From Acutalibacteraceae bacterium (GTDB lineage: Bacteria > Bacillota > Clostridia > Christensenellales > CAG-138): a stretch of DNA of 64,000 nucleotides. Under the pieces are notes generated by a model. That model saw only the letters and a list, made by a program, of their open reading frames with translations, did no database searches and was not told the origin of the DNA. Made by a program: the position numbers and the translations under genes. Shown piece by piece: positions 21,870-54,342 of this stretch; the first letter of the stretch is position 1; each line of letters begins with the position of its first letter. Location of the stretch: assembly GCA_963640685.1 (NCBI GenBank), contig CAVIAA010000001.1, forward strand, positions 2,395 to 66,394. Direction: 5' to 3'.

Positions 21870-22110
21870 CAATATAGCGATGACGAAGAGGAGTATGCGC
21901 TTATTCCGCACAAGAGAGACGGCTCCGCCGGCTGAGAGGGCTGTTTGCATGAAAGGCGCAGAAGGTCGCTTCCGAGCTTCGGAGATGAACAAACAGTAGT
22001 TTCCGGCGGCCTCGCCACGTTACGGCGAAGGAGAGGGGCGCTCAGCGCCCAATAAAGGTGGTACCGCGGGTCCGCTCGTCCTTTAAAAAATGGGACGGAG
22101 CGGGCTTTTT
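21870..22110 (+). promoter_or_regulatory. T-box leader (tRNA-Val sensing) upstream of valS
   Basis: Stem I opening GCGATGACGAAGAGGAGTA (21877..). Specifier region GCGCAGAAG-GUC-G-CUUCCGAGC, with GUC at 21965..21967. T-box sequence AATAAAGGTGGTACCGCGG at 22051..22069. Terminator GTCCGCTCGTCC...GGACGGAGCGGGC plus TTTTT. Confidence 0.85.
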
Positions 22111-22149
22111 ATTGCAAATTATTTCATTGGTGATACAGGAGGAAAACAC

Positions 22150-24792
22150 ATGAGCAAAGAGCTGCCTAAGACCTACGACCATTCCGACGTGGAAAGCAGG
22201 CTTTATGAGGCATGGGAAAGCAAGGGCTACTTCCATGCCGAGGCGAACCCTAAGAAGGATCCGTACTGCATAGTTATGCCGCCGCCAAACATAACCGGCA
22301 AGCTGCATATGGGACATGCGCTGGACAATACCCTTCAGGATTCCATAATACGCTATAAGCGCATGAACGGCTTTGAAACGCTGTGGCTGCCGGGAACGGA
22401 CCACGCCTCCATAGCTACCGAGGTCAAGATAGTTACCGAGATGGCAAAGGAGGGCATCGACAAGCGGGATATAGGCCGCGAGGCGTTCCTTAAGAGGGCG
22501 TGGGAATGGCGGCGTGAATACGGCGGAACCATAGTTAAGCAGCTGCGCAAGATGGGCTCCTCGTGCGACTGGGAGCGTGAACGCTTTACGATGGACGAGG
22601 GCTGCAACAGAGCGGTAACCAAGGTGTTCGTCGACCTGTACAAAGAAGGACTCATATATCGCGACGACCGCATAATAAACTGGTGCCCGGTCTGCCAAAC
22701 CGCGCTTTCGGATGCGGAGGTGGAATACGAGGAGCAGGCCAGCCACCTTTGGCACGTTCGCTACGACGCGCCGGATGAGAGCTATTCGATAACCTGCGCG
22801 ACCACCCGCCCCGAGACGATACCCGGCGACACGGCCATAGCCGTGAACCCCGAGGATGAGCGGTATAAGGATCTCGTCGGCAAGACCGTCATAGTGCCGG
22901 TCGTCGGCCGCGAGATACCAATAGTCGCCGATGAATACGTTGAAAAGGAGTTCGGCTCCGGCGCGGTCAAGATCACCCCCTGCCACGACCCGAACGACTT
23001 TGAGGTGGGCGTAAGGCACGGCCTGCCCCGCATAAGGGTGTTTACCGACGACGGACACCTGAACGAGCTGGGCGCACCGTATACCGGCATGACCACTATG
23101 GAGTGCCGCAAGGCTATCGTTGCCGATATGGAAAAGAGCGGCAACCTCGTTAAAATAGAGGACTACACGCACAACGTCGGCGTTTGCTACCGCTGCCACA
23201 ACACCGTTGAGCCGCTGACCAGCCTGCAGTGGTTCGTGAGCATGAAGCCGCTTGCAAAGGAGGCGATAAGGGTCGTTGAGGAGGGCGAGGTCAAGTTCGT
23301 TCCGGAGCGGTTCAACAAGACCTACTTCAACTGGATGTATAACATCAGGGATTGGTGTATTTCGCGCCAGCTCTGGTGGGGACACAGAATACCGGCATAT
23401 TACTGCGAGAACCCGTCCTGCGGCCATATCGAGGTAACGCTGGACGAGCCCAAGACCTGCCCCGTATGCGGCGGAAGGGTGCATCAGGATGAGGACGTGC
23501 TGGATACATGGTTCAGCTCCGGAATGTGGCCGTTCTCGACCTTGGGCTGGCCGGATGAAACGCCGGAGCTCAAGTATTTCTACCCGACCAGCACGCTGGT
23601 CACCGGCTATGACATAATCTTCTTCTGGGTAGCCCGAATGATAGTTTTCGGCACCAAGGTAATGGGCAAAATACCATTTGATACCGTGTATGTGCACGGC
23701 ATAGTGAGGGATGAGCTGGGCAGGAAGATGTCCAAGTCGCTCGGCAACGGCATTGACCCGCTGGAGATAATCAAGGACTACGGCGCGGATTCACTCCGCT
23801 TCAGCCTTGTTACAGGCAACAGCGCGGGCAACGATATGCGCTTCTCCAATAAAAAGGTCGAGGCAGCGCGCAACTTCTGCAACAAGGTATACAATGCCTC
23901 CCGCTTCGTGCTGATGAACATCGGCGATGAGGGCGTTGGCGAAATAGACATGGATAAGCTGGATATAGCGGATAAGTGGATACTGCACCGGCTGAATACT
24001 GTTGCGGGCGAGGTCACGGCGAACATGGACGGCTTTGAGCTGAATGTTGCGGCGCAGAAGGTATACGACTTCATATGGACGGAGTTCTGTGACTGGTACA
24101 TCGAGATGGCCAAGCCGAGGCTCTACGGTGAGGACGAGGGCGCAAAGGCCAACGTTCGGGCGATACTCGTAAGGGTGCTGGGCGATGCAATGAAGCTGCT
24201 GCATCCCTTCATGCCGTTCATAACAGAGGAGCTGTATCAGAGCCTGCCCAATGCGGAGGAGACCATAATGCGGGCAAGCTGGCCCAAGTATACCGAGGCG
24301 TTTGAGTTCGCAGCGGAGGCAGCCGAGATGGAGGGCGTTATGGATGTGATACGCTCCATAAGGAACCTGCGGGCGGAGATGAACGTTCCCCCGGCAAGGC
24401 GTACAGCAGTTTATATGGTCACCCCCGCAGAAAACGCCGCTGCATTTGAAATGGCCAAGGCATACCTTATGAAGCTCGCGGGAGCGGAGAGCGTGACCGT
24501 TCAGCAGGATAAGAACGGCATACCCAAGGGCGCCGTGAACGCCGTGTGTGCTATGGGCGAGGCGTTCATACCGCTGGATCAGCTCATCGACATAGACAAG
24601 GAGATCGAGCGGGTAAGCAAGGAGATAGCCAAAATGCAGGGCGAGGTTGCAAGGGCAGAGGGCAAGCTCAATAACCCGGGCTTCGTTGCAAAGGCGCCGG
24701 AAAAGGTCATAAACGAGGAGAAGGAAAAGCTTGCCGTTGCAAGAGAAATGCTCTCAAAGCTCGAGCATCGCCTTGCGGAGCTGCAAAAATAA
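22150..24792 (+). CDS. valS: Valine--tRNA ligase
   Basis: HIGH-type motif PPPNITGKLHMGHAL, KMSKS present, and a C-terminal coiled coil. Start is the ATG at 22150 after AGGAGGA. The upstream part of the track ORF lies inside the T-box terminator. Confidence 0.97.
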   Translation: MSKELPKTYDHSDVESRLYEAWESKGYFHAEANPKKDPYCIVMPPPNITGKLHMGHALDNTLQDSIIRYKRMNGFETLWLPGTDHASIATEVKIVTEMAKEGIDKRDIGREAFLKRAWEWRREYGGTIVKQLRKMGSSCDWERERFTMDEGCNRAVTKVFVDLYKEGLIYRDDRIINWCPVCQTALSDAEVEYEEQASHLWHVRYDAPDESYSITCATTRPETIPGDTAIAVNPEDERYKDLVGKTVIVPVVGREIPIVADEYVEKEFGSGAVKITPCHDPNDFEVGVRHGLPRIRVFTDDGHLNELGAPYTGMTTMECRKAIVADMEKSGNLVKIEDYTHNVGVCYRCHNTVEPLTSLQWFVSMKPLAKEAIRVVEEGEVKFVPERFNKTYFNWMYNIRDWCISRQLWWGHRIPAYYCENPSCGHIEVTLDEPKTCPVCGGRVHQDEDVLDTWFSSGMWPFSTLGWPDETPELKYFYPTSTLVTGYDIIFFWVARMIVFGTKVMGKIPFDTVYVHGIVRDELGRKMSKSLGNGIDPLEIIKDYGADSLRFSLVTGNSAGNDMRFSNKKVEAARNFCNKVYNASRFVLMNIGDEGVGEIDMDKLDIADKWILHRLNTVAGEVTANMDGFELNVAAQKVYDFIWTEFCDWYIEMAKPRLYGEDEGAKANVRAILVRVLGDAMKLLHPFMPFITEELYQSLPNAEETIMRASWPKYTEAFEFAAEAAEMEGVMDVIRSIRNLRAEMNVPPARRTAVYMVTPAENAAAFEMAKAYLMKLAGAESVTVQQDKNGIPKGAVNAVCAMGEAFIPLDQLIDIDKEIERVSKEIAKMQGEVARAEGKLNNPGFVAKAPEKVINEEKEKLAVAREMLSKLEHRLAELQK

Positions 24793-25400: not shown

Positions 25401-25436
25401 GCCTGTCAACAGCCCTATTTGTTGACAGGCTTTTTT
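25401..25436 (+). terminator. Intrinsic terminator after mntP
   Basis: GCCTGTCAAC-agccctattt-GTTGACAGGC followed by TTTTTT. Confidence 0.85.
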
Positions 25437-25450
25437 ATGGGAATTATAAT
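25422..25450 (+). promoter_or_regulatory. Consensus sigma-A promoter placed for a leaderless transcript
   Basis: TTGACA (25422..25427), 17-nt spacer, TATAAT (25445..25450). The ATG at 25457 is only 6 nt after the -10 box, and there is no RBS. Confidence 0.6.
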
Positions 25451-25456
25451 CAAGGC

Positions 25457-26365
25457 ATGAATCGCGAAGAGCTTGACCGTAAAGCGGCGAGGGCGAAGGA
25501 TCGCCGTATATATCATATTTGCTCGGCAAAGAGGGCTGCTGCGGCGCTTATGGCGGCGGGTCTTCTCTGCTCTGCTGGCTGCGCCAAAAAGCAGGCCGCA
25601 GAGGACGACACCTATGTAATGGTGGATATAGGCTACTTCAACGAGGAGAACTACGGCGACGACACAACGTTCGTTGCGATAACCGGCGGGTTTTCAACGC
25701 CGGAGCCTGCGGTAACGCCTGTTCCGACGCCGGAGCCAACGGCAAAGCCGCGCAGCACAAAAAAACCGAGCAGCACCGCAAAGGCGGACAAAAAAGAAGA
25801 GACAAAGAAGGAAGAAAAAAAGACCGAGGAGGAGAAGGCCGAGGCTACGCCAACGCCTGAGCCGAAGAAAAAGACCCCATATTACAGTAGCTACACCAGG
25901 CAGTCGCTTTCATATGAGAGCGGTTCGTCTGCTGTGAGCTTTGAGACGACCACATTTGACGGCAGCAGCGTCAGTGAGAGCATCTTCAGCAAGAGTTTTG
26001 TCACCATGATAAACATATGGACGACTACCTGAGCGTCCTGCATGCAAGAGATGGGTGATCTCTCAGAACTCGCAAAGGAATATAGCGGCAGCGGCTTCAG
26101 GATATATGGCCTTGCGGCGGATGTTACGCCGGATTCCTCAACGCTTATAGCCAGCGCAAAAGCCCTGTTTGAATCGGCAGGGGGCAGCCATACCAACCTT
26201 ACCTGCAGCACCAGCGCCCGCAGGGCGATGATGGACGGCGTGAGCGTCGTGCCCACGACCAAGTTTTATGACTCGGAGGGCAAGCTCATAACCGTCGTTC
26301 ACGGCGCAAAGAGCAAGCAAAAATGGATAGATATAATTGAGACGGTGATGAATGAAAAAGCGTAG
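25457..26365 (+). CDS. Exported TlpA/ResA-like thioredoxin-fold protein; candidate selenoprotein with a UxxC redox motif (UGA 26030..26032 read as Sec)
   Basis: Track ORFs 25457..26032 and 26042..26365 share one frame. Read-through gives MINIWTTT-U-ASC-MQEMGDLSELAKEY, in register with the NFWATWCxPCxxEMP consensus. The C-terminal half carries VVPTTKFYDSEGKLI. The N-terminus has a signal anchor (AAAALMAAGLLCSAGC) and a PT/KE-rich linker. Confidence 0.7.
26047..26063 (+). promoter_or_regulatory. SECIS-like hairpin downstream of UGA 26030
   Basis: AGAGAU-GGGUG-AUCUCU: a 6-bp stem starting 14 nt after the UGA, with a 5-nt loop starting with G. Confidence 0.6.
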
Positions 26366-26492
26366 TATTATTTCTCTTGCAATAGCAGCGGTGGGCTTGA
26401 CCTTTATCGTCATAGGCGCGGTAAGGGGCGAGGCTGGTGCCGTTATGCAGAAGGCTGTAATGATATGCATGGAGTGTATAGGCCTTGGATAA
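26352..26492 (+). CDS. 46-aa single-TM micro-protein with a C-terminal CxxC (resembles, from memory, the 'CD1871A-family CXXC' small proteins)
   Basis: Absent from the ORF track because it is under 60 aa. Translation: MKKRSIISLAIAAVGLTFIVIGAVRGEAGAVMQKAVMICMECIGLG. It overlaps the upstream stop by 14 nt and the downstream start by 8 nt. Confidence 0.65.
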   Translation: MKKRSIISLAIAAVGLTFIVIGAVRGEAGAVMQKAVMICMECIGLG

Positions 26493-27411
26493 GAAAAAGA
26501 GCAAAAAAAACAAAAATAACCACCCCTTTTTAAGGGCGAGGACCTACTTTCAGGCCTGCTGGACGCTGCTTACAAACAGCTATGCCTCAGGCTTTATAAA
26601 CGGAACGATATATCAGGGCGGAGTTAAAAGCGTGTGCGTGCCCGGGCTGAACTGCTATTCCTGCCCCGGCGCGTGGGGCGCCTGCCCGCTGGGCTCGCTG
26701 CAGAACGCACTTGCGGGCAGGGTGCAGGGCTTCCCGTTTTACGTCGTAGGGACGCTGATAACGATAGGCGCGCTGCTGGGCAGGATAGTCTGCGGCTGGC
26801 TGTGCCCGTTCGGCCTCGTGCAGGATCTTCTGTTCAAGCTGCCGCCAAAGCGGAAAATACGCGCGCTGCCCGGCGAAAGATATCTGCGCAAGCTGCGCTA
26901 TGTGATACTCGTAGTCATGTGCATACTGCTGCCGATGCTGGTAAAAACATCCTACGGCCTCGGTATGCCGTGGTTCTGCAAGTGGATATGCCCCTCAGGA
27001 ACGCTGCTGGGCGGCCTGCCGCTCTTTGCGCTGAACGAGAGCCTGCGCAGCGCTGTCGGCTGGCTGTTCAGCTGGAAGCTGTTCCTGCTGGTCGTGATAC
27101 TGCTATGCTCTGCGCTCATGTTTAGGCCGTTCTGCCGGTATCTGTGCCCTCTCGGCGCGATATACGGGCTTATGAACCCCGTGTCCCTCGTAAGGATGCG
27201 GGTGAGCAGGAGCCGCTGCACGCAGTGCGGCGCCTGCCAGCGTGCCTGTGGGCTGGATATACCGGTATACAAGGAGCCTAACTCGACCGACTGCATACGC
27301 TGTGGAAAGTGCGTCACGGTATGCCCGAGCAGCGCGCTGAAGCTGAACGTTGAGCTGAAGGGCAGGCGCAAGCGCAGGCGTACTGCCGAGGAGAGCGCGG
27401 ATGAGGTATGA
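26485..27411 (+). CDS. NapH/YccM-like membrane polyferredoxin (4Fe-4S binding protein)
   Basis: Four CxxCP/Cx3CP motifs (CYSCP, CGWLCP, CKWICP, CRYLCP) between TM segments. Two ferredoxin motifs follow: CTQCGACQRAC and CIRCGKCVTVCP. The TTG start is 8 nt after GGAGTG. Confidence 0.8.
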   Translation: MDKKKSKKNKNNHPFLRARTYFQACWTLLTNSYASGFINGTIYQGGVKSVCVPGLNCYSCPGAWGACPLGSLQNALAGRVQGFPFYVVGTLITIGALLGRIVCGWLCPFGLVQDLLFKLPPKRKIRALPGERYLRKLRYVILVVMCILLPMLVKTSYGLGMPWFCKWICPSGTLLGGLPLFALNESLRSAVGWLFSWKLFLLVVILLCSALMFRPFCRYLCPLGAIYGLMNPVSLVRMRVSRSRCTQCGACQRACGLDIPVYKEPNSTDCIRCGKCVTVCPSSALKLNVELKGRRKRRRTAEESADEV

Positions 27412-27952
27412 GCCGGAGCTGATACGCCTTAAGAACAGAAGCTACGGCGTGCTCCGCAGCCCGAGCCCGGCTGAGGGCGGCAGAGTGCTGGAGCTGATGC
27501 GGGCCTGCACCGCCGAAACCGAGTACCTTATAGAATATCCGGATGAGATAAGCCATAGCGACGAGAGCGAGGCTGCGCTTATATTTGCAGCCGGCGAATC
27601 AGCGGGCAGGCTGCTCATCGTTTGCGATATCGAGGGTGAGCTTGCAGGGCTCTGCTCGCTCAGCTGCGATGGGATCACGAAGTTCAAAATAAGGCACCGC
27701 GCCGCGGCCGGCATATGCATATTAAAAAAATACTGGGGCATAGGCATTGGCAGGGCGATGATGAGCGCAATAGAGGCGCAGGCCAAAGCGGCGGGGCTTA
27801 GCCAGCTCGAGCTGGAGCTTATAGAGGGCAACGAAAGGGCAATGGGGCTTTATTCCGCACTTGGCTACCACGAGACCGGAGCGCTGCCAAATGCGATACG
27901 CACAAGAGATGGCAGGAGCCTCAGCCTGTACACTATGATAAAGCAAATATAA
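27401..27952 (+). CDS. GNAT family N-acetyltransferase
   Basis: Acetyl-CoA motif ILKKYWGIGIGRAMM...NERAMGLYSALGY. It overlaps the upstream gene by 11 nt. Confidence 0.8.
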   Translation: MRYEPELIRLKNRSYGVLRSPSPAEGGRVLELMRACTAETEYLIEYPDEISHSDESEAALIFAAGESAGRLLIVCDIEGELAGLCSLSCDGITKFKIRHRAAAGICILKKYWGIGIGRAMMSAIEAQAKAAGLSQLELELIEGNERAMGLYSALGYHETGALPNAIRTRDGRSLSLYTMIKQI

Positions 27953-49840: not shown

Positions 49841-51232
49841 ATGGATAACAAAAAGCTGGAAAAAAACGAAATGGACATGACCACAGGCCCCTTGTTCGGC
49901 AAGCTTGTGGCCTATGCCGTGCCGGTCATGCTGACCGGCATACTGCAGCTGCTCTTTAACGCGGCGGATCTTATAGTCGTTGGCCGCTATGCCGGCAGCA
50001 CGGCTCTCGCCGCGGTTGGCTCAACTACCCAGCTTACCAACCTTATCGTGAATGTATTCATGATGATATCCGTAGGCGTGAGCGTCGTCGTGGCGCAGCA
50101 CTACGGCGCGCATGAGCCTGTTGAGGTTGGGCAAACGGTATCCGCCGCAATGCTCATGAGCCTTATGTTGGGTGTCCTGGTTTGCGCAATAGGCATTACG
50201 GTGAGCAGACCCATGCTGGAGCTTATGGGGTCGCCGGAGGACGTAATAGATCAGTCTGCGCTGTATTTGAAGATATATTTTACGAGCATGCCTGCCTTTA
50301 TGGTCTACAACTTCGGCGCCTCGGCGCTCAGGGCTGTCGGCGACACGAGGCGGCCGATGATGTTCTTAAGCATTGCCGGCGTAATAAATATCATACTGAA
50401 CCTCGTTACGGTGATATGCTTTAACATGGGCGTTGCAGGTGTTGCAATAGCGACCTCGGTTTCTCAGTATATCTCTGCTGCGTGCGTTGTGCTCAGCCTG
50501 ATAAGGACGGAAAGCTGCCTGCACCTTGACATTGGGCATATGGCGCTGCATAAGGATAAGGTGCTGGCGATACTCAAGGTCGGCCTTCCTGCAGGGCTGC
50601 AGAGCTTTGTGTTTTCAATTTCAAACGTGCTCATACAGTCCTCGGTAAATTCCTTCGGCTCGGTGGTCATGGCGGGCAGCGCGGCCTCGGCAAATATAGA
50701 GGGGTTTATATACATATCCATGAGTGCCGTCGTTCAGGCCGCAATGGCGTTCACCGGCCAGAATATAGGTGCGCGAAGGTTTGAGAGGATAGGCGAGGTC
50801 GTAAGAAAGAGCATACTGCTGCAAATAGTCGTGTCAGGCATATTGGCCGTGGTGTGCTGCACATTTTCGGAGCAGCTTATAAGCATATACGCCAAGGAGG
50901 ACGCAGGTGTGATAGCTTCCGGCGTATCGAGGCTCAGGATAATCAGCAGCCTGTATTTTATAATGGGCATATCGGATATAGCGGTCGGCGCGATGCGCGG
51001 AATGGGCAATTCAACAGTGCCGATGATAATAAGCGTGCTCGGCATATGCGTATTGAGGATAGTATGGCTGTATACAGTGTTTAAAGCCGTAAGGACGTTT
51101 GAAATGCTTATAATAAGCTATCCCGTTTCCTGGCTGATAACCCTGATAATGCAGTATATATGCTACGGCATAGTAAAGCGCAGAACGATAGAGCGGCTGA
51201 AGACGGAGCCCGGGTGCGCCGTAGGAGATTAG
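49841..51232 (+). CDS. MATE family efflux transporter
   Basis: Twelve-TM protein with the TGPLFGKLVAYAVPVMLTGILQLLFNAADLIVVGR N-terminus typical of MATE/NorM. The ATG lies 1 nt after the apbE stop. Confidence 0.85.
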   Translation: MDNKKLEKNEMDMTTGPLFGKLVAYAVPVMLTGILQLLFNAADLIVVGRYAGSTALAAVGSTTQLTNLIVNVFMMISVGVSVVVAQHYGAHEPVEVGQTVSAAMLMSLMLGVLVCAIGITVSRPMLELMGSPEDVIDQSALYLKIYFTSMPAFMVYNFGASALRAVGDTRRPMMFLSIAGVINIILNLVTVICFNMGVAGVAIATSVSQYISAACVVLSLIRTESCLHLDIGHMALHKDKVLAILKVGLPAGLQSFVFSISNVLIQSSVNSFGSVVMAGSAASANIEGFIYISMSAVVQAAMAFTGQNIGARRFERIGEVVRKSILLQIVVSGILAVVCCTFSEQLISIYAKEDAGVIASGVSRLRIISSLYFIMGISDIAVGAMRGMGNSTVPMIISVLGICVLRIVWLYTVFKAVRTFEMLIISYPVSWLITLIMQYICYGIVKRRTIERLKTEPGCAVGD

Positions 51233-51996
51233 AAAAACAGCTGCGAAATCACCTTTATGAAGAGCAGTATGATCACTGCCGCCATTATCGGGCGGATAAA
51301 CCTTGCGCCGTTTTTTACGGCGAGGCTGCTGCCAACGTAGTTGCCGAGCATTGCACAGAGGGCGCAGGGTATGCCTACGGCGAACCACACCTTGCCTGCG
51401 AGCACGAAGGTCACAAGTGCGCCTATATTGGAGGCAAGGTTGACCACCTTTGCGTTGCCGCTGGCGGTGATGAGGTCATAGCCCATCAGCGAGCAGAAAA
51501 GCATTATATAAAACGTTCCGGAGCCCGGGCCGAAAAAACCATCGTACAGGCCGACACAGAGACCTATCAGCAGCGCGTATGCGGCGAATTTAAGCGGTGT
51601 GAGGCTCTTTTCCTGTCCCTCTGCCCCAAAGCCTCTGTTGAGGCTCAAAAACACCGCAGCAGCGGGCAACAGTACCATCAGCACCATATTGAGGTACCTT
51701 TCGCTCAGCAGTAGCGCGAGCCTTGCGCCAAAGGCGGAGCCTATCAGCGCACCTGCGGCTGCCGTCAGCGCCGCTTTCCATTTTATCGCGCCGCTCCTGC
51801 CGTATTTTACAACGCTTGTTGCGGTGCCAATGCTCATTGCGAATTTATTCGTTCCATATACCGTGTGTATGGGTATGCCGGCAAGCATGGCAACAGGCAG
51901 GGAAATCAGCCCGCCGCCGCCGGCTACGGCGTCGGTAAACCCGGCAAGAAAATACCCCGGACATACTATGAGCAGCTTTTGCAGAATATCGGTCAA
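51229..51996 (-). CDS. TauE/SafE (TSUP) family anion permease
   Basis: FTDAVAGGGGLISLP and the second-half repeat GFFGPGSGTF. I prefer the TTG at 51996, 9 nt after AGGAGG. Confidence 0.8.
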   Translation of the reverse strand: MTDILQKLLIVCPGYFLAGFTDAVAGGGGLISLPVAMLAGIPIHTVYGTNKFAMSIGTATSVVKYGRSGAIKWKAALTAAAGALIGSAFGARLALLLSERYLNMVLMVLLPAAAVFLSLNRGFGAEGQEKSLTPLKFAAYALLIGLCVGLYDGFFGPGSGTFYIMLFCSLMGYDLITASGNAKVVNLASNIGALVTFVLAGKVWFAVGIPCALCAMLGNYVGSSLAVKNGARFIRPIMAAVIILLFIKVISQLFF

Positions 51997-52091
51997 TCTA
52001 AGTTCCCTCCTTTGTGCGCTGTATATATGGATTATAACACGAACAGGAGGATTAAATACAGCCATACCGGTAAATAAGATGTGATACCCTT

Positions 52092-52979
52092 TTACAGCGG
52101 CGGATATGTGCCGAGCTCGCTTATTATGCGCTGAGAATACTCTATAAACGTGCGGGCAGCAAGCGAGGCATTCTGGAGCGATTTTACGATTATGCCCATA
52201 TGACGGTATTCGCAGGGCGAAAGCTCTTTTTTAATGACGTTTGCTTCAAGGCTGTCCAGCACCATCTCAGGCATGACCGTCACGCCCAGGCCGTGCTGTA
52301 TCATTGCGATTATTCCCCTGTTTTCCATGGTTGAGAAGGAAAGGCGGGGGGTTATTCCGCTGCCCTTTACGACCTCGGAAACGTCGTAGTCAAAGCCCTC
52401 GTATGAGAGTATGAACGGGTCCTCTGCAAGCTCGCTGAGGCTCACGCTTTCGCTGTTCACGAGCCGGTGCCCGGGGGGAAGCAGTGCAAGCATCCTGTCC
52501 GAGGCCAGGTGTATCCATTCATAGCTTGGCGGCGGGTTGCTCATTATTGCAAAGTCGATGACGGATTCGTCGAGCTGATTCAAGAGCGAATCGTTGCCGC
52601 CAACGATTATCTCTATTTGTATGCCGGGATAATCCCGACTAAATTCTTCGATTATTTTGGGCAGCCACAGCACCGAGGCACTGGCAAAGGTGCCGATGCG
52701 GAGCTTGCCGAAGCTCATGCCGCGTATATTTGCAACTATCTGGTCGAGGTGGTCGTTTGCGTTGAGTATTTCGCGCACGGCAGGCAGCAGCGCCTTTCCG
52801 TTTTCCGTCAGCCGAACGCCGCCCTTGCCGCGAATGAGCACCGGAAAGCCGAATTCATCCTCGATAGTCCGTATCAGGTGGCTTACGCCGGACTGGGTGA
52901 AGCCGAGCTGGTTGCCAGCGGCGGTAAGGCTCTGCGTTTCTATTACCTTTAGAAGCACCTCTAATTTTTTGATATCCAC
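52092..52979 (-). CDS. LysR family transcriptional regulator
   Basis: HTH LEVLLKVIETQSLTAAGNQLGFTQSGVSHLIRTIE. The GTG at 52979 lies 8 nt after AAGGAGG. Confidence 0.85.
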   Translation of the reverse strand: MDIKKLEVLLKVIETQSLTAAGNQLGFTQSGVSHLIRTIEDEFGFPVLIRGKGGVRLTENGKALLPAVREILNANDHLDQIVANIRGMSFGKLRIGTFASASVLWLPKIIEEFSRDYPGIQIEIIVGGNDSLLNQLDESVIDFAIMSNPPPSYEWIHLASDRMLALLPPGHRLVNSESVSLSELAEDPFILSYEGFDYDVSEVVKGSGITPRLSFSTMENRGIIAMIQHGLGVTVMPEMVLDSLEANVIKKELSPCEYRHMGIIVKSLQNASLAARTFIEYSQRIISELGTYPPL

Positions 52980-53076
52980 TATACACGCCTCCTTAACATG
53001 AGAAATGTTCATGAAGGTTCAATAAAACATTCATTTTACTTATGTTGTTTTTTATATTATAATAACAACAAGAAAA

Positions 53077-53301: not shown

Positions 53302-54342
53302 ATGAACAACGACGTTCGCCTGACCTCGATGACATCCTGCGGCGGCTGAGCTGCCAAAATAGGTCCGGGAGTGCTGGACGCAATGCTTTCGACTCTGCCG
53401 AAAAATTCCGACCCGAGGCTCATAGTGGGCTTTGACACGGCGGATGACGCGGCAGTATATAAAATAAACGACGACACGGCGATAATTCAAACCGTGGATT
53501 TTTTTCCGCCGATGGTGGACGACCCGTATACCTTCGGTCAGGTCGCGGCGGCCAATGCGCTCAGCGACATATATGCGATGGGCGGCGAGCCAAAGCTGGC
53601 GCTTAACCTCTTCTGCTTCCCCTCAAAAAAGCTGCCGGAGGAGGCCATAAAGGCCATCCTTGCAGGCGGGGCGGATAAGGTGCTTGAGGCGGGGGCGATA
53701 CTCTGCGGCGGGCACACTATCGAGGATCCGGAGCCGAAGTACGGCCTTGCCGTTACCGGCTTTGTGAACCCGGGCAGGGTGCTTTCGAATGCATCTGCAA
53801 GGGAGGGCGACCTGCTGATACTTACAAAGCCCATCGGCAGCGGCATACTGACGACCGCGGCAAAGGCGCAGCTTCTCTTTGGTGAGCAGGAAAAGCAACT
53901 GATAGCCACTATGACGGCGCTAAACGCAAAGGCGCAGCGCTCAATGATGAAATTCGATATCAACTCCTGCACCGACATAACCGGCTTCGGTCTTATGGGG
54001 CATGTGCGCGAAATGGCGGAGGGCAGCGGGCTCACGGCCGAGATAACGGCGGACGCGGTGCCGATGCTGGATGGTGCGCTGAGCTTCGCAAATATGGGCA
54101 TAATACCCGCCGGCGCGTACCGCAACAGGGAATTTATCGGGGAAAAGGTCAGCATACGGGAGGACGTGGACAGAGCCGTTGCCGATATACTCTTTGACCC
54201 GCAGACCTCCGGAGGGCTGCTCATTAGCCTGCCGGAAAAGCAGGCATACGCCCTTTTGGAGGATATACGGAGCCATACGCCTGCCGCCGCCATAATCGGC
54301 CGAATGAAGGCCAAGGGATGGTATGCGATAGAGGTAATATAA
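53302..54342 (+). CDS. selD: Selenide, water dikinase SelD, Sec-containing form (UGA 53347..53349)
   Basis: MNNDVRLTSMTSCGG-U-AAKIGPGVLDAML continues in frame into track ORF 53371..54342. The GxG[C/U]xxK active-site loop and the AIR-synthase-like body are present. Confidence 0.88.
53363..53379 (+). promoter_or_regulatory. SECIS-like hairpin downstream of the selD UGA
   Basis: GUCCGG-GAGUG-CUGGAC: a 6-bp stem (one G-U pair) starting 13 nt after the UGA, with a 5-nt loop. Confidence 0.55.

Follow-up and report, generated by a model that had tools for sequence, protein, structure and literature searches.

A probable selenocysteine-containing thioredoxin-fold lipoprotein, encoded across an in-frame UGA beside an iron-sulfur membrane protein in uncultured gut Clostridia

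The stretch of DNA analysed here (hereafter the window) comprises 64,000 nucleotides (nt) of contig CAVIAA010000001.1 from an Acutalibacteraceae bacterium; its positions 25457-26365 very probably constitute a single gene encoding a 302-residue selenoprotein, in which the UGA at codon 192 would be decoded as selenocysteine (Sec). The TGA at 26030-26032 ends an open reading frame (ORF), 25457..26032, after which the same frame runs on through GCG TCC TGC ATG to a TAG at 26363-26365. The TGA is the sole interruption in a 302-codon gene that joins this ORF to a second, 26042..26365; an earlier note on this DNA had described the two ORFs as sharing one frame, split only by the TGA and the codons GCG TCC TGC, and inspection of the sequence bears this out. 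Read-through gives FVTMINIWTTT-U-ASC-MQEMGDLSELAKEYSGSGFRIYGLAAD, with ASC-MQEMGDLSELAKEY following Sec. Neither ORF alone is a complete domain, as had also been proposed, because the matches to the ResA and AhpC-TSA profiles both span residue 192. In a word-indexed search of 5.8 billion proteins the homologues were all half-length, i.e. 16 downstream halves and one upstream half; gene callers have therefore broken all the homologues at one and the same point. Public annotation splits the gene, with one downstream half carrying the Prokaryotic Genome Annotation Pipeline label 'hypothetical protein'.

The identity of the codon at the UGA column divides the relatives of the window protein into two clades. 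Five contigs fetched around the fragment homologues have TGA at the same column in 5/5 cases and are syntenic, the order being valS, mntP, upstream ORF, TGA, downstream ORF, a 46-residue ORF, an iron-sulfur (Fe-S) membrane protein gene and a GNAT gene. A scan of one genome per GTDB species gave eight further loci, at 53-71% identity and with TGA at the column in 8/8, all from metagenome-assembled genomes of uncultured Clostridia from sources such as human gut (Hadza included) and buffalo cecum; their active-site motifs are UPSC, UVSC, UTSC and ULSC. Among the 80 loci of a metagenome scan, TGA is present in 31, all of them at least 59% identical to the window protein, and TGC or TGT in 49, all at most 41% identical. 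Overall, the Sec relatives span 53-99% identity across 13 loci plus the 31 metagenome loci, and full-length alignment with the Cys homologues gives 30-36% identity. When only unique sequences are counted, the column is TGA in 15/15 of the Sec clade and TGC or TGT in 43/43 of the Cys clade, in agreement with the expectation of the earlier note that homologues would have either Cys or TGA at this position, with conservation continuing past it. The downstream frame is itself conserved, as had been anticipated, the alignment of the downstream halves containing 24 invariant columns. To either side of the TGA the amino acids are conserved while the codons vary synonymously, from which it follows that both sides are translated in this frame. 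The conservation of TGA at one column in 15 unique sequences, with conservation on either side, is far beyond chance.

These data bear on the possibility that the TGA disables, or is miscalled in, an ordinary CxxC TlpA-like gene, i.e. that the locus is a pseudogene or reflects an assembly or sequencing error. Such an explanation would fit the splitting of every database entry by gene callers and the obvious frame disruptions in one related contig, L003. However, independent assemblies and hosts share the TGA at this column, at identities as low as 53%; purifying selection is evident on both sides of it; relatives at least 53% identical have a Cys codon at the column in no case; and the hairpin described below co-occurs with the TGA. 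The comparative data thus effectively refute a pseudogene or error, the residual probability of which is slight indeed. The further claim that there are no additional frame disruptions holds in 12/13 independent loci, L003 (ENA contig_6740) being the exception. In L003 mntP, the 3' end of the selenoprotein gene, the CD1871A gene and the NapH-like gene are all broken by apparent frameshifts, with the TGA and the hairpin intact; these frameshifts are probably indel errors of long-read assembly, not biology.

A hairpin of the bacterial Sec insertion sequence (bSECIS) type, which the earlier note had suggested looking for, is present at the right distance and is confined to TGA-containing genes. 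The bSECIS model specifies a loop of 3-9 nt with a G in the first two loop positions, an upper stem of 4-16 bp, a UGA-loop spacing of 16-37 nt and a minimum free energy of <=-7.5 kcal/mol (PMC13188914). The window hairpin fits this geometry, with a 5-nt loop, a 6-bp stem and a spacing of 20 nt; beneath the upper stem are a 2-nt bulge, CA, and a lower stem, CUG/CAG, which in the window is AUG/CAG and so is weakened by the CUG-to-AUG change. Over nt 8-44 most members of the clade fold at -10 to -11 kcal/mol, with values of -6.0 in L009 and -7.3 in L012; the loop in L011 is GAGUG. Single-sequence folding z-scores are near 0, i.e. the hairpin is not distinguished by thermodynamics alone, and comparative tests were therefore needed. 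Specificity was scored at a fixed register, a generic best-hairpin finder having been set aside as it was drawn to alternative G-U helices. At this register 5/5 Watson-Crick pairs form in 15/15 unique Sec sequences, compared with 0/43 unique Cys sequences, the maximum among which is 4. The synonymous codons over the hairpin are frozen in the Sec sequences, Glu being encoded by GAG, Leu by CTC and Ser by TCA, each in 15/15, while only 2/25 of the other invariant degenerate codons in the analysed stretch are monomorphic. E-M is followed by Pro in 43/43 Cys forms and by Gly (14) or Ser (1) in Sec forms, the GGU or AGU codon of which supplies the G-rich loop. The support for the predicted element is thus synonymous freezing together with absence from the Cys forms, rather than covariation.

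A related observation concerns the Cys-type loci (L014-L017, L049-L097), in which the codons for E-M-P-D-L form a partial hairpin, GAGAU-GCCNG-AUCU, at nt +18..+34 past the TGY; this has at most 4/5 pairs at the SECIS register, and in L088 it reaches 6 bp, a G-U pair among them. It is plausible that the partial hairpin was the precursor of the Sec-clade element, via replacement of Pro by Gly and codon fixation. The active-site dipeptide also differs, with CxPC or CxYC in the Cys forms giving way to Ux[S/T]C in the Sec forms (window positions 26033-26041). This shift could be driven by RNA rather than by catalysis, the AGC-UGY codons lying within the predicted lower stem of the SECIS element.

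Evidence from elsewhere in the window concerns the capacity of the organism to decode Sec. The presence of a Sec-type selD, on which the earlier note had relied, is upheld; codon 16, at the canonical GGUAAK position, is TGA. The hairpin that follows this TGA (GUCCGG/CUGGAC, with a 6-bp stem and the loop GAGUG) is near-identical in geometry to that of the lipoprotein gene, the stem starting at nt 17 after the UGA in selD and at nt 18 in the lipoprotein gene. The predicted Sec in selD implies that the organism decodes UGA as Sec, as its own selD depends on it. Reassignment of UGA as a sense codon for Trp or Gly has practically no likelihood, because TGA is the ordinary terminator of mntP, the NapH-like gene and dapB, as it is of 12/45 long open frames in the window. 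Moreover, in-frame TGAs occur only at Sec/Cys catalytic positions, i.e. residue 16 of selD and the CxxC column, and the homologues have Cys at this column, not Trp or Gly. Divergently upstream of selD (51229-52065 and 52092-53012, both on the minus strand) are two genes, one for a LysR regulator and the other for a membrane protein of PRK10621/YfcA-like type; the former product matches the 'selenium metabolism-associated LysR' model weakly (115 bits against a cutoff of 250), and it is possible that the two genes are selenium-related neighbours of selD.

The read-through product belongs to the ResA/TlpA-type thioredoxin fold class. Profile searches used the protein with Cys in place of U. Residues 143-297 are covered by the NCBIfam ResA profile (its positions 26-172 out of 176, E=1.8e-10) and residues 156-276 by Pfam AhpC-TSA, at 31.6 bits and above the gathering score of 26. 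The curated cut-offs for ResA (NF002854, 41 versus 170 bits), TlpA (NF047696, 25 versus 230) and DsbE (TIGR00385, 28 versus 123) are missed by far, and ResA, TlpA and DsbE proper were rejected as orthologues, although the fold class is shared. Matches from phmmer against the PDB are of the TlpA/ResA class, i.e. 3or5, ResA (4nmu, 1st9), Etrx1/2 and TlpA (1jfu), with 2l5o also aligned. NIWTTTCASC..EM is placed on NFFATWCPPCRSEI in 3or5 and on NFWGTWCKPCEKEM in ResA (4nmu), such that U192 falls on the first Cys of W-C-x-x-C, the register that the earlier note had recognised, and VPTT falls on the cis-Pro loop, IPTS/LPTS, of 3or5/ResA. For structural comparison a Cys-type orthologue from Blautia ('TlpA family protein disulfide reductase') stood in for the Sec protein. 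Its model has a predicted local distance difference test (pLDDT) score of >90 in the domain, and the CxxC is at the start of helix alpha-1 (helix 90-104). Foldseek matches this model to ResA, 4nmu, 3or5, Etrx1/2, StoA, SdbA, CcmG and TlpA in the PDB with TM-scores of up to 0.83, the value for ResA being 0.82.

The N-terminal region is predicted to direct export and lipidation. The signal-peptide end, LC[ST]xGC-AKK, is kept in all Sec-clade loci, and the Cys-type orthologues have canonical lipoboxes, L-x-[SATG]-G-C, e.g. LSGC, LTGC and EGC. Between the putative lipid anchor and the catalytic domain is a low-complexity tether that differs in length and composition among loci. Because it combines a lipobox signal peptide, a tether and a ResA/TlpA-type fold with U192-A-S-C195, the product is assigned to the extracytoplasmic thiol-disulfide oxidoreductases and would be tethered to the membrane. 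Reductases make up the majority of this class. A role as an extracytoplasmic thiol-disulfide reductase is probable for the UxxC lipoprotein. One Sec-clade locus, L011, has an extra segment of ~110 residues between lipobox and linker (from about 150-200 nt to about 650 nt upstream of its TGA at 1607), which by eye resembles a cell-wall-binding or SH3b-type domain.

The overall similarity to the ResA/TlpA/CcmG/StoA class (cd02966; 1su9, 1st9, 4nmu, 1jfu, 2b1k, 3erw) covers the thioredoxin fold, including its N-terminal beta-hairpin and central insert, the W-x-x-x-[C/U]-x-x-C register, the cis-Pro loop and anchoring at the outer face of the membrane. By contrast with these proteins, the window protein has Sec in place of the nucleophilic Cys, Ux[S/T]C rather than CxPC, and a lipid anchor with a low-complexity tether of ~100 residues; it is also encoded with NapH-like and CD1871A proteins, not with CcdA/DsbD or cytochrome c maturation genes. 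Etrx1 and Etrx2, surface-exposed lipoprotein thioredoxins of Streptococcus pneumoniae (4hqs, 4hqz, 2yp6), are likewise TlpA-like reductases of a Firmicute and rank with the best matches in both sequence and structure. Their recycling depends on CcdA, and they have a link to MsrAB2, a methionine sulfoxide reductase (Msr). Unlike the window protein they are Cys-based, and the window locus has neither an Msr nor a CcdA gene.

Several UxxC thioredoxin-fold selenoprotein families have been catalogued, chiefly in Deltaproteobacteria and in metagenomes of marine or groundwater origin, including 'Prx-like thiol:disulfide oxidoreductase' (PF00578), 'Thiol:disulfide interchange protein' (PF13098), 'Thiol-disulfide isomerase-like' (cd02966), 'Redoxin family protein' (PF08534) and 'UGC-containing TlpA family' (PMC13188914, PMC1794560). 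They have in common with the window protein a Sec-first CxxC motif on a fold of the TlpA/redoxin/AhpC-TSA type, and were likewise predicted by Sec/Cys pairing and bSECIS elements; by contrast, the window protein is a gut-Clostridia lipoprotein within a CD1871A/NapH-like module. With an AhpC-TSA match of 31.6 bits and the motif UASC, it falls within the published combination of PF00578 and UxxC (PMC13188914), a placement made by definition and not by sequence comparison. It is probably a member of the known UxxC thioredoxin-fold selenoprotein class that represents a new clade; no selenoprotein-specific NCBIfam model matches it. SaoT (NF040730), from the SAO system of Clostridioides difficile and other anaerobes, is also a Clostridia thioredoxin-like protein with UxxC variants, but is a cytosolic, MJ0307-like protein of ~85 residues within a nine-gene organometallic system, whereas the window protein has 302 residues and a different architecture and context. 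Identity with SaoT was rejected, there being no NF040730 match at E<=0.1 and the size and gene context being different.

The gene order lipoprotein, CD1871A-family peptide, NapH-like protein is kept in distant relatives that have a Cys-type lipoprotein. Among the loci with enough flanking sequence (32 Sec, 36 Cys), the CD1871A gene is downstream in 31/32 Sec and 32/36 Cys loci, and the NapH-like gene in 32/32 and 30/36, respectively. Within this widespread three-gene module, the predicted selenoprotein represents a Sec form of the lipoprotein component that has become fixed in a single clade of uncultured gut Clostridia. Its CD1871A-family partner has one transmembrane helix, predicted to run N-in/C-out, with a C-terminal C-M-E-C motif outside. 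The NapH-like partner has 18 invariant Cys residues, arranged in two ferredoxin-type 4Fe-4S motifs, three CX3CP motifs and one CX5CX2CX6CP motif. Its topology, as predicted from hydropathy and the positive-inside rule, would have the ferredoxin domain on the cytoplasmic side together with two CX3CP motifs, and the four-Cys motif and one CX3CP at the outer face, so that all three module proteins would have Cys motifs at the outer face. With the NapH/MauN/NosR/CcoG-type (Fer4_5) proteins it shares a four-helix core, CX3CP motifs and two C-terminal ferredoxin-type 4Fe-4S motifs; it differs in having the invariant CX5CX2CX6CP and a third CX3CP, both predicted to be at the outer face, and in being consistently paired with a TlpA-like lipoprotein and a CD1871A peptide. 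Scores are under the NapH cut-offs (82.6 versus 213 bits for TIGR02163, NapH/MauN; 78.4 versus 234 for NF007013). With these scores, and with no nap, nos or cco genes near the NapH-like gene, NapH proper was rejected as an identity, the likeness being one of architecture only. No CcdA/DsbD gene is present in the locus or in 17 related loci, and the surroundings of the loci examined have no metal-binding or Msr gene in common. A literature search returned zero mentions of CD1871A, and the combination of NapH, thiol-disulfide oxidoreductase and lipoprotein gave nothing relevant.

The genes of the unit overlap successively, by 14 nt between the selenoprotein and CD1871A genes (26352-26365), 8 nt between the CD1871A and NapH-like genes (26485-26492) and 11 nt between the NapH-like and GNAT genes (27401-27411), and the NapH-like gene starts with TTG; the overlaps suggest translational coupling. 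The GNAT gene, which is possibly co-transcribed with the module, is upstream of it in the Cys-type locus L017 (1588-2211) and absent from L014-L016. Its association with the module is recurrent, not universal, and its part in the system is uncertain.

A mechanism can be proposed on this basis. The hairpin, 13-37 nt downstream of UGA192, would recruit SelB and Sec-tRNA(Sec), so that Sec is inserted and termination does not occur. In the folded protein the exposed selenolate would attack a substrate disulfide (or a sulfenate or persulfide), and Cys195 would resolve the mixed selenenylsulfide, the resulting Se-S bond then being re-reduced; the low pKa and strong nucleophilicity of the selenolate may speed the first and the last of these steps. 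The lipoprotein most likely acts as a reductase, on the model of ResA, TlpA and Etrx. Its partners in the module may carry reducing equivalents outwards across the membrane from the cytoplasm, taking the place of CcdA/DsbD. A specific relay, in which electrons would pass from cytoplasmic Fe-S clusters to the outer-face Cys residues of the NapH-like protein, then to the CxxC of CD1871A, to U192-x-x-C195 of the lipoprotein and finally to an extracellular disulfide or persulfide substrate, is possible but somewhat less than an even prospect. Also doubtful on balance is the broader proposal that the module is an uncharacterised Fe-S-dependent alternative to CcdA/DsbD that feeds a surface thiol or selenol reductase, upgraded from Cys to Sec in one clade with a SECIS element drawn from the latent E-M-P-D-L hairpin.

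Several points weigh against the interpretation of the gene as a selenoprotein acting at the cell surface. The window hairpin has a folding energy over nt 8-44 of -6.7 kcal/mol, weaker than the -7.5 threshold, because the Leu-to-Met change removes a lower-stem pair; longer window segments containing the same hairpin give -15.4 and -25 kcal/mol. RNAalifold finds 0 compensatory pairs, as the stem is invariant, and Rfam has no SECIS or other family at the site, either at the gathering threshold over the whole window or at E<=10 over 25980-26130. The genes selA, selB and selC were not found in the 64-kb window, including the ORFs around selD, and ARAGORN and Rfam identify tRNA-Glu as the only tRNA in the window, with no tRNA-Sec. 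The Sec-clade lipobox has Ser or Thr at -3, where Leu is usual. The AlphaFold2 model of the NapH-like protein is poor (pLDDT 55) and was not used for fold matching. The proposed reductase direction, substrate and route via NapH-like and CD1871A proteins come from homology, synteny and predicted topology.

Some of these points would favour a real stop, or read-through by a standard tRNA, at UGA192; the product would then be a truncated lipoprotein stub, perhaps with a separately initiated C-terminal fragment, or a full-length protein with Trp or Cys. The selA, selB and selC results and the marginal stability of the window hairpin are in keeping with this, as is the ATG that follows the UxxC motif in the window. 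However, there is no conserved start at 26042, because this codon is Leu (CTG, TTG or CTT) in all other members of the clade, and the Met used by gene callers elsewhere is the family-wide E-M-(P/G) residue, which has no suitably spaced Shine-Dalgarno sequence. Neither half would be a foldable thioredoxin domain, plain termination leaves the frozen synonymous sites and the TGA-specific hairpin unexplained, and selD of the same organism itself needs Sec decoding. A real stop or standard-tRNA read-through is thus very unlikely, and decoding of UGA192 as Sec is preferred.

Granted a genuine selenoprotein, the module may instead handle a specific surface species (persulfide, polysulfide, thiosulfate, copper or selenium), with U-x-x-C serving for its binding or transfer. 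CcoG reduces cupric ions, and TlpA proper serves copper-site maturation (ScoI/CoxB); these roles, together with the placement of the NapH-like partner among the NapH/NosR/CcoG-type Fer4_5 membrane Fe-S proteins, are consistent with this alternative, as is the replacement of CxPC by Ux[S/T]C among Sec-clade members. The Cys-type orthologue of L016 (1885-2865) has an N-terminal rhodanese domain fused to its thioredoxin domain, a hint that the chemistry of the module involves sulfur, persulfide or thiosulfate. By contrast, the closest structures are generic extracytoplasmic disulfide reductases (ResA, Etrx, StoA), the rhodanese fusion was seen in a single locus, the neighbourhood has no conserved metal-binding or Msr gene, and the dipeptide shift may reflect constraints on the lower stem of the SECIS element. 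Handling of one such species is accordingly rather unlikely, general thiol-disulfide reductase activity being the favoured reading.

The gene preceding the selenoprotein gene is mntP-like (NF008546, E=3e-38), and the 3' arm of its terminator overlaps the -35 box of the predicted selenoprotein promoter. The -10 box ends 6 nt before the ATG at 25457, on account of which the selenoprotein mRNA may be leaderless. The promoter and the 6-nt gap to an in-frame ATG are kept in L001, L003, L004, L006, L007 and L008; no such promoter was found in L009, L010, L012 and L013, Sec-clade loci that are more distant. Further upstream, a T-box leader (RF00230, 118.7 bits) at 21871-22086 precedes valS (22090-24792). 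Table 1 collects the coordinates of the features.

Table 1. Features of the selenoprotein locus and of selD, in window coordinates
Feature	Position	Strand	Description and basis
Intrinsic terminator of mntP-like gene	25401..25430	+	12-bp stem then TTTTTT; 5' boundary of unit
Sigma-70-type promoter, TTGACA-17-TATAAT	25422..25450	+	12/12 consensus match; promoter function predicted
Selenoprotein gene	25457..26365	+	302 codons plus TAG stop, predicted Sec at codon 192; ResA/TlpA-like thioredoxin-fold lipoprotein
Signal peptide and lipobox-like LLCSAG-C42	25457..25582	+	Cys42 codon 25580-25582; predicted lipidation site, from sequence inspection
Tether	25583..25882	+	Low-complexity, Pro/Thr- and Lys/Glu/Asp-rich, ~100 residues; between lipid anchor and catalytic domain
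Thioredoxin-fold (ResA/TlpA-like) domain, residues 143-297	25883..26347	+	NCBIfam ResA, Pfam AhpC-TSA, PDB sequence matches
UGA Sec codon, residue 192	26030..26032	+	N-terminal nucleophilic position of redox motif; Sec/Cys column comparison
U-A-S-C active-site motif	26030..26041	+	Ux[S/T]C across Sec clade; CxPC or CxYC in Cys-type orthologues
bSECIS element	26037..26073	+	Folding, frozen synonymous codons, fixed-register pairing test
bSECIS upper stem, AGAGAU/AUCUCU	26047-26052 / 26058-26063	+	6 bp
bSECIS apical loop, GGGUG	26053-26057	+	5 nt; 20 nt from UGA
cis-Pro, Pro266 (VPTT loop)	26252..26254	+	Aligned to 3or5/ResA; invariant in homologue alignments A1 and A3
CD1871A-family small membrane protein, 46 residues	26352..26492	+	NF040920 E=4e-15, 55.4 bits versus cutoff 32
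NapH-like polytopic Fe-S membrane protein, 308 residues	26485..27411	+	Pfam Fer4_5 E=3e-19
GNAT acetyltransferase	27401..27952	+	Overlaps NapH-like gene; downstream in Sec-clade loci
Sec-type selD	53302..54342	+	Sec16, TGA 53347-53349 (TSCGGUAAKIGPG); TIGR00476 E=1.4e-113

UxxC thioredoxin-fold selenoproteins are already familiar; what is added here is the predicted site of the protein, as a surface lipoprotein, the Sec/Cys comparison of the SECIS region and the link to an Fe-S/CxxC membrane module. With respect to annotation, the gene is misannotated wherever it has been found (17/17 database homologues are half-length), and the correction covers a whole clade of gut Clostridia. The Sec/Cys split provides an unusually clear natural example of a SECIS element carved from coding sequence, in which the invariant Pro of the Cys form is replaced by Gly for the G-rich loop, Leu and Ser codons freeze and a partial hairpin pre-exists. 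The module itself is widespread in Lachnospiraceae, Blautia and related Clostridia, with >3,000 lipoprotein and >8,000 NapH-like homologues, and its predicted topology suggests an Fe-S-based route for electron delivery to the cell surface. If the reading as an Fe-S system is true, it would feature an exported, lipid-anchored selenoprotein acting at the gut-bacterial cell surface. The selenoproteome of gut microbes would thereby gain a surface-exposed lipoprotein, which bears on the competition of gut bacteria for selenium.

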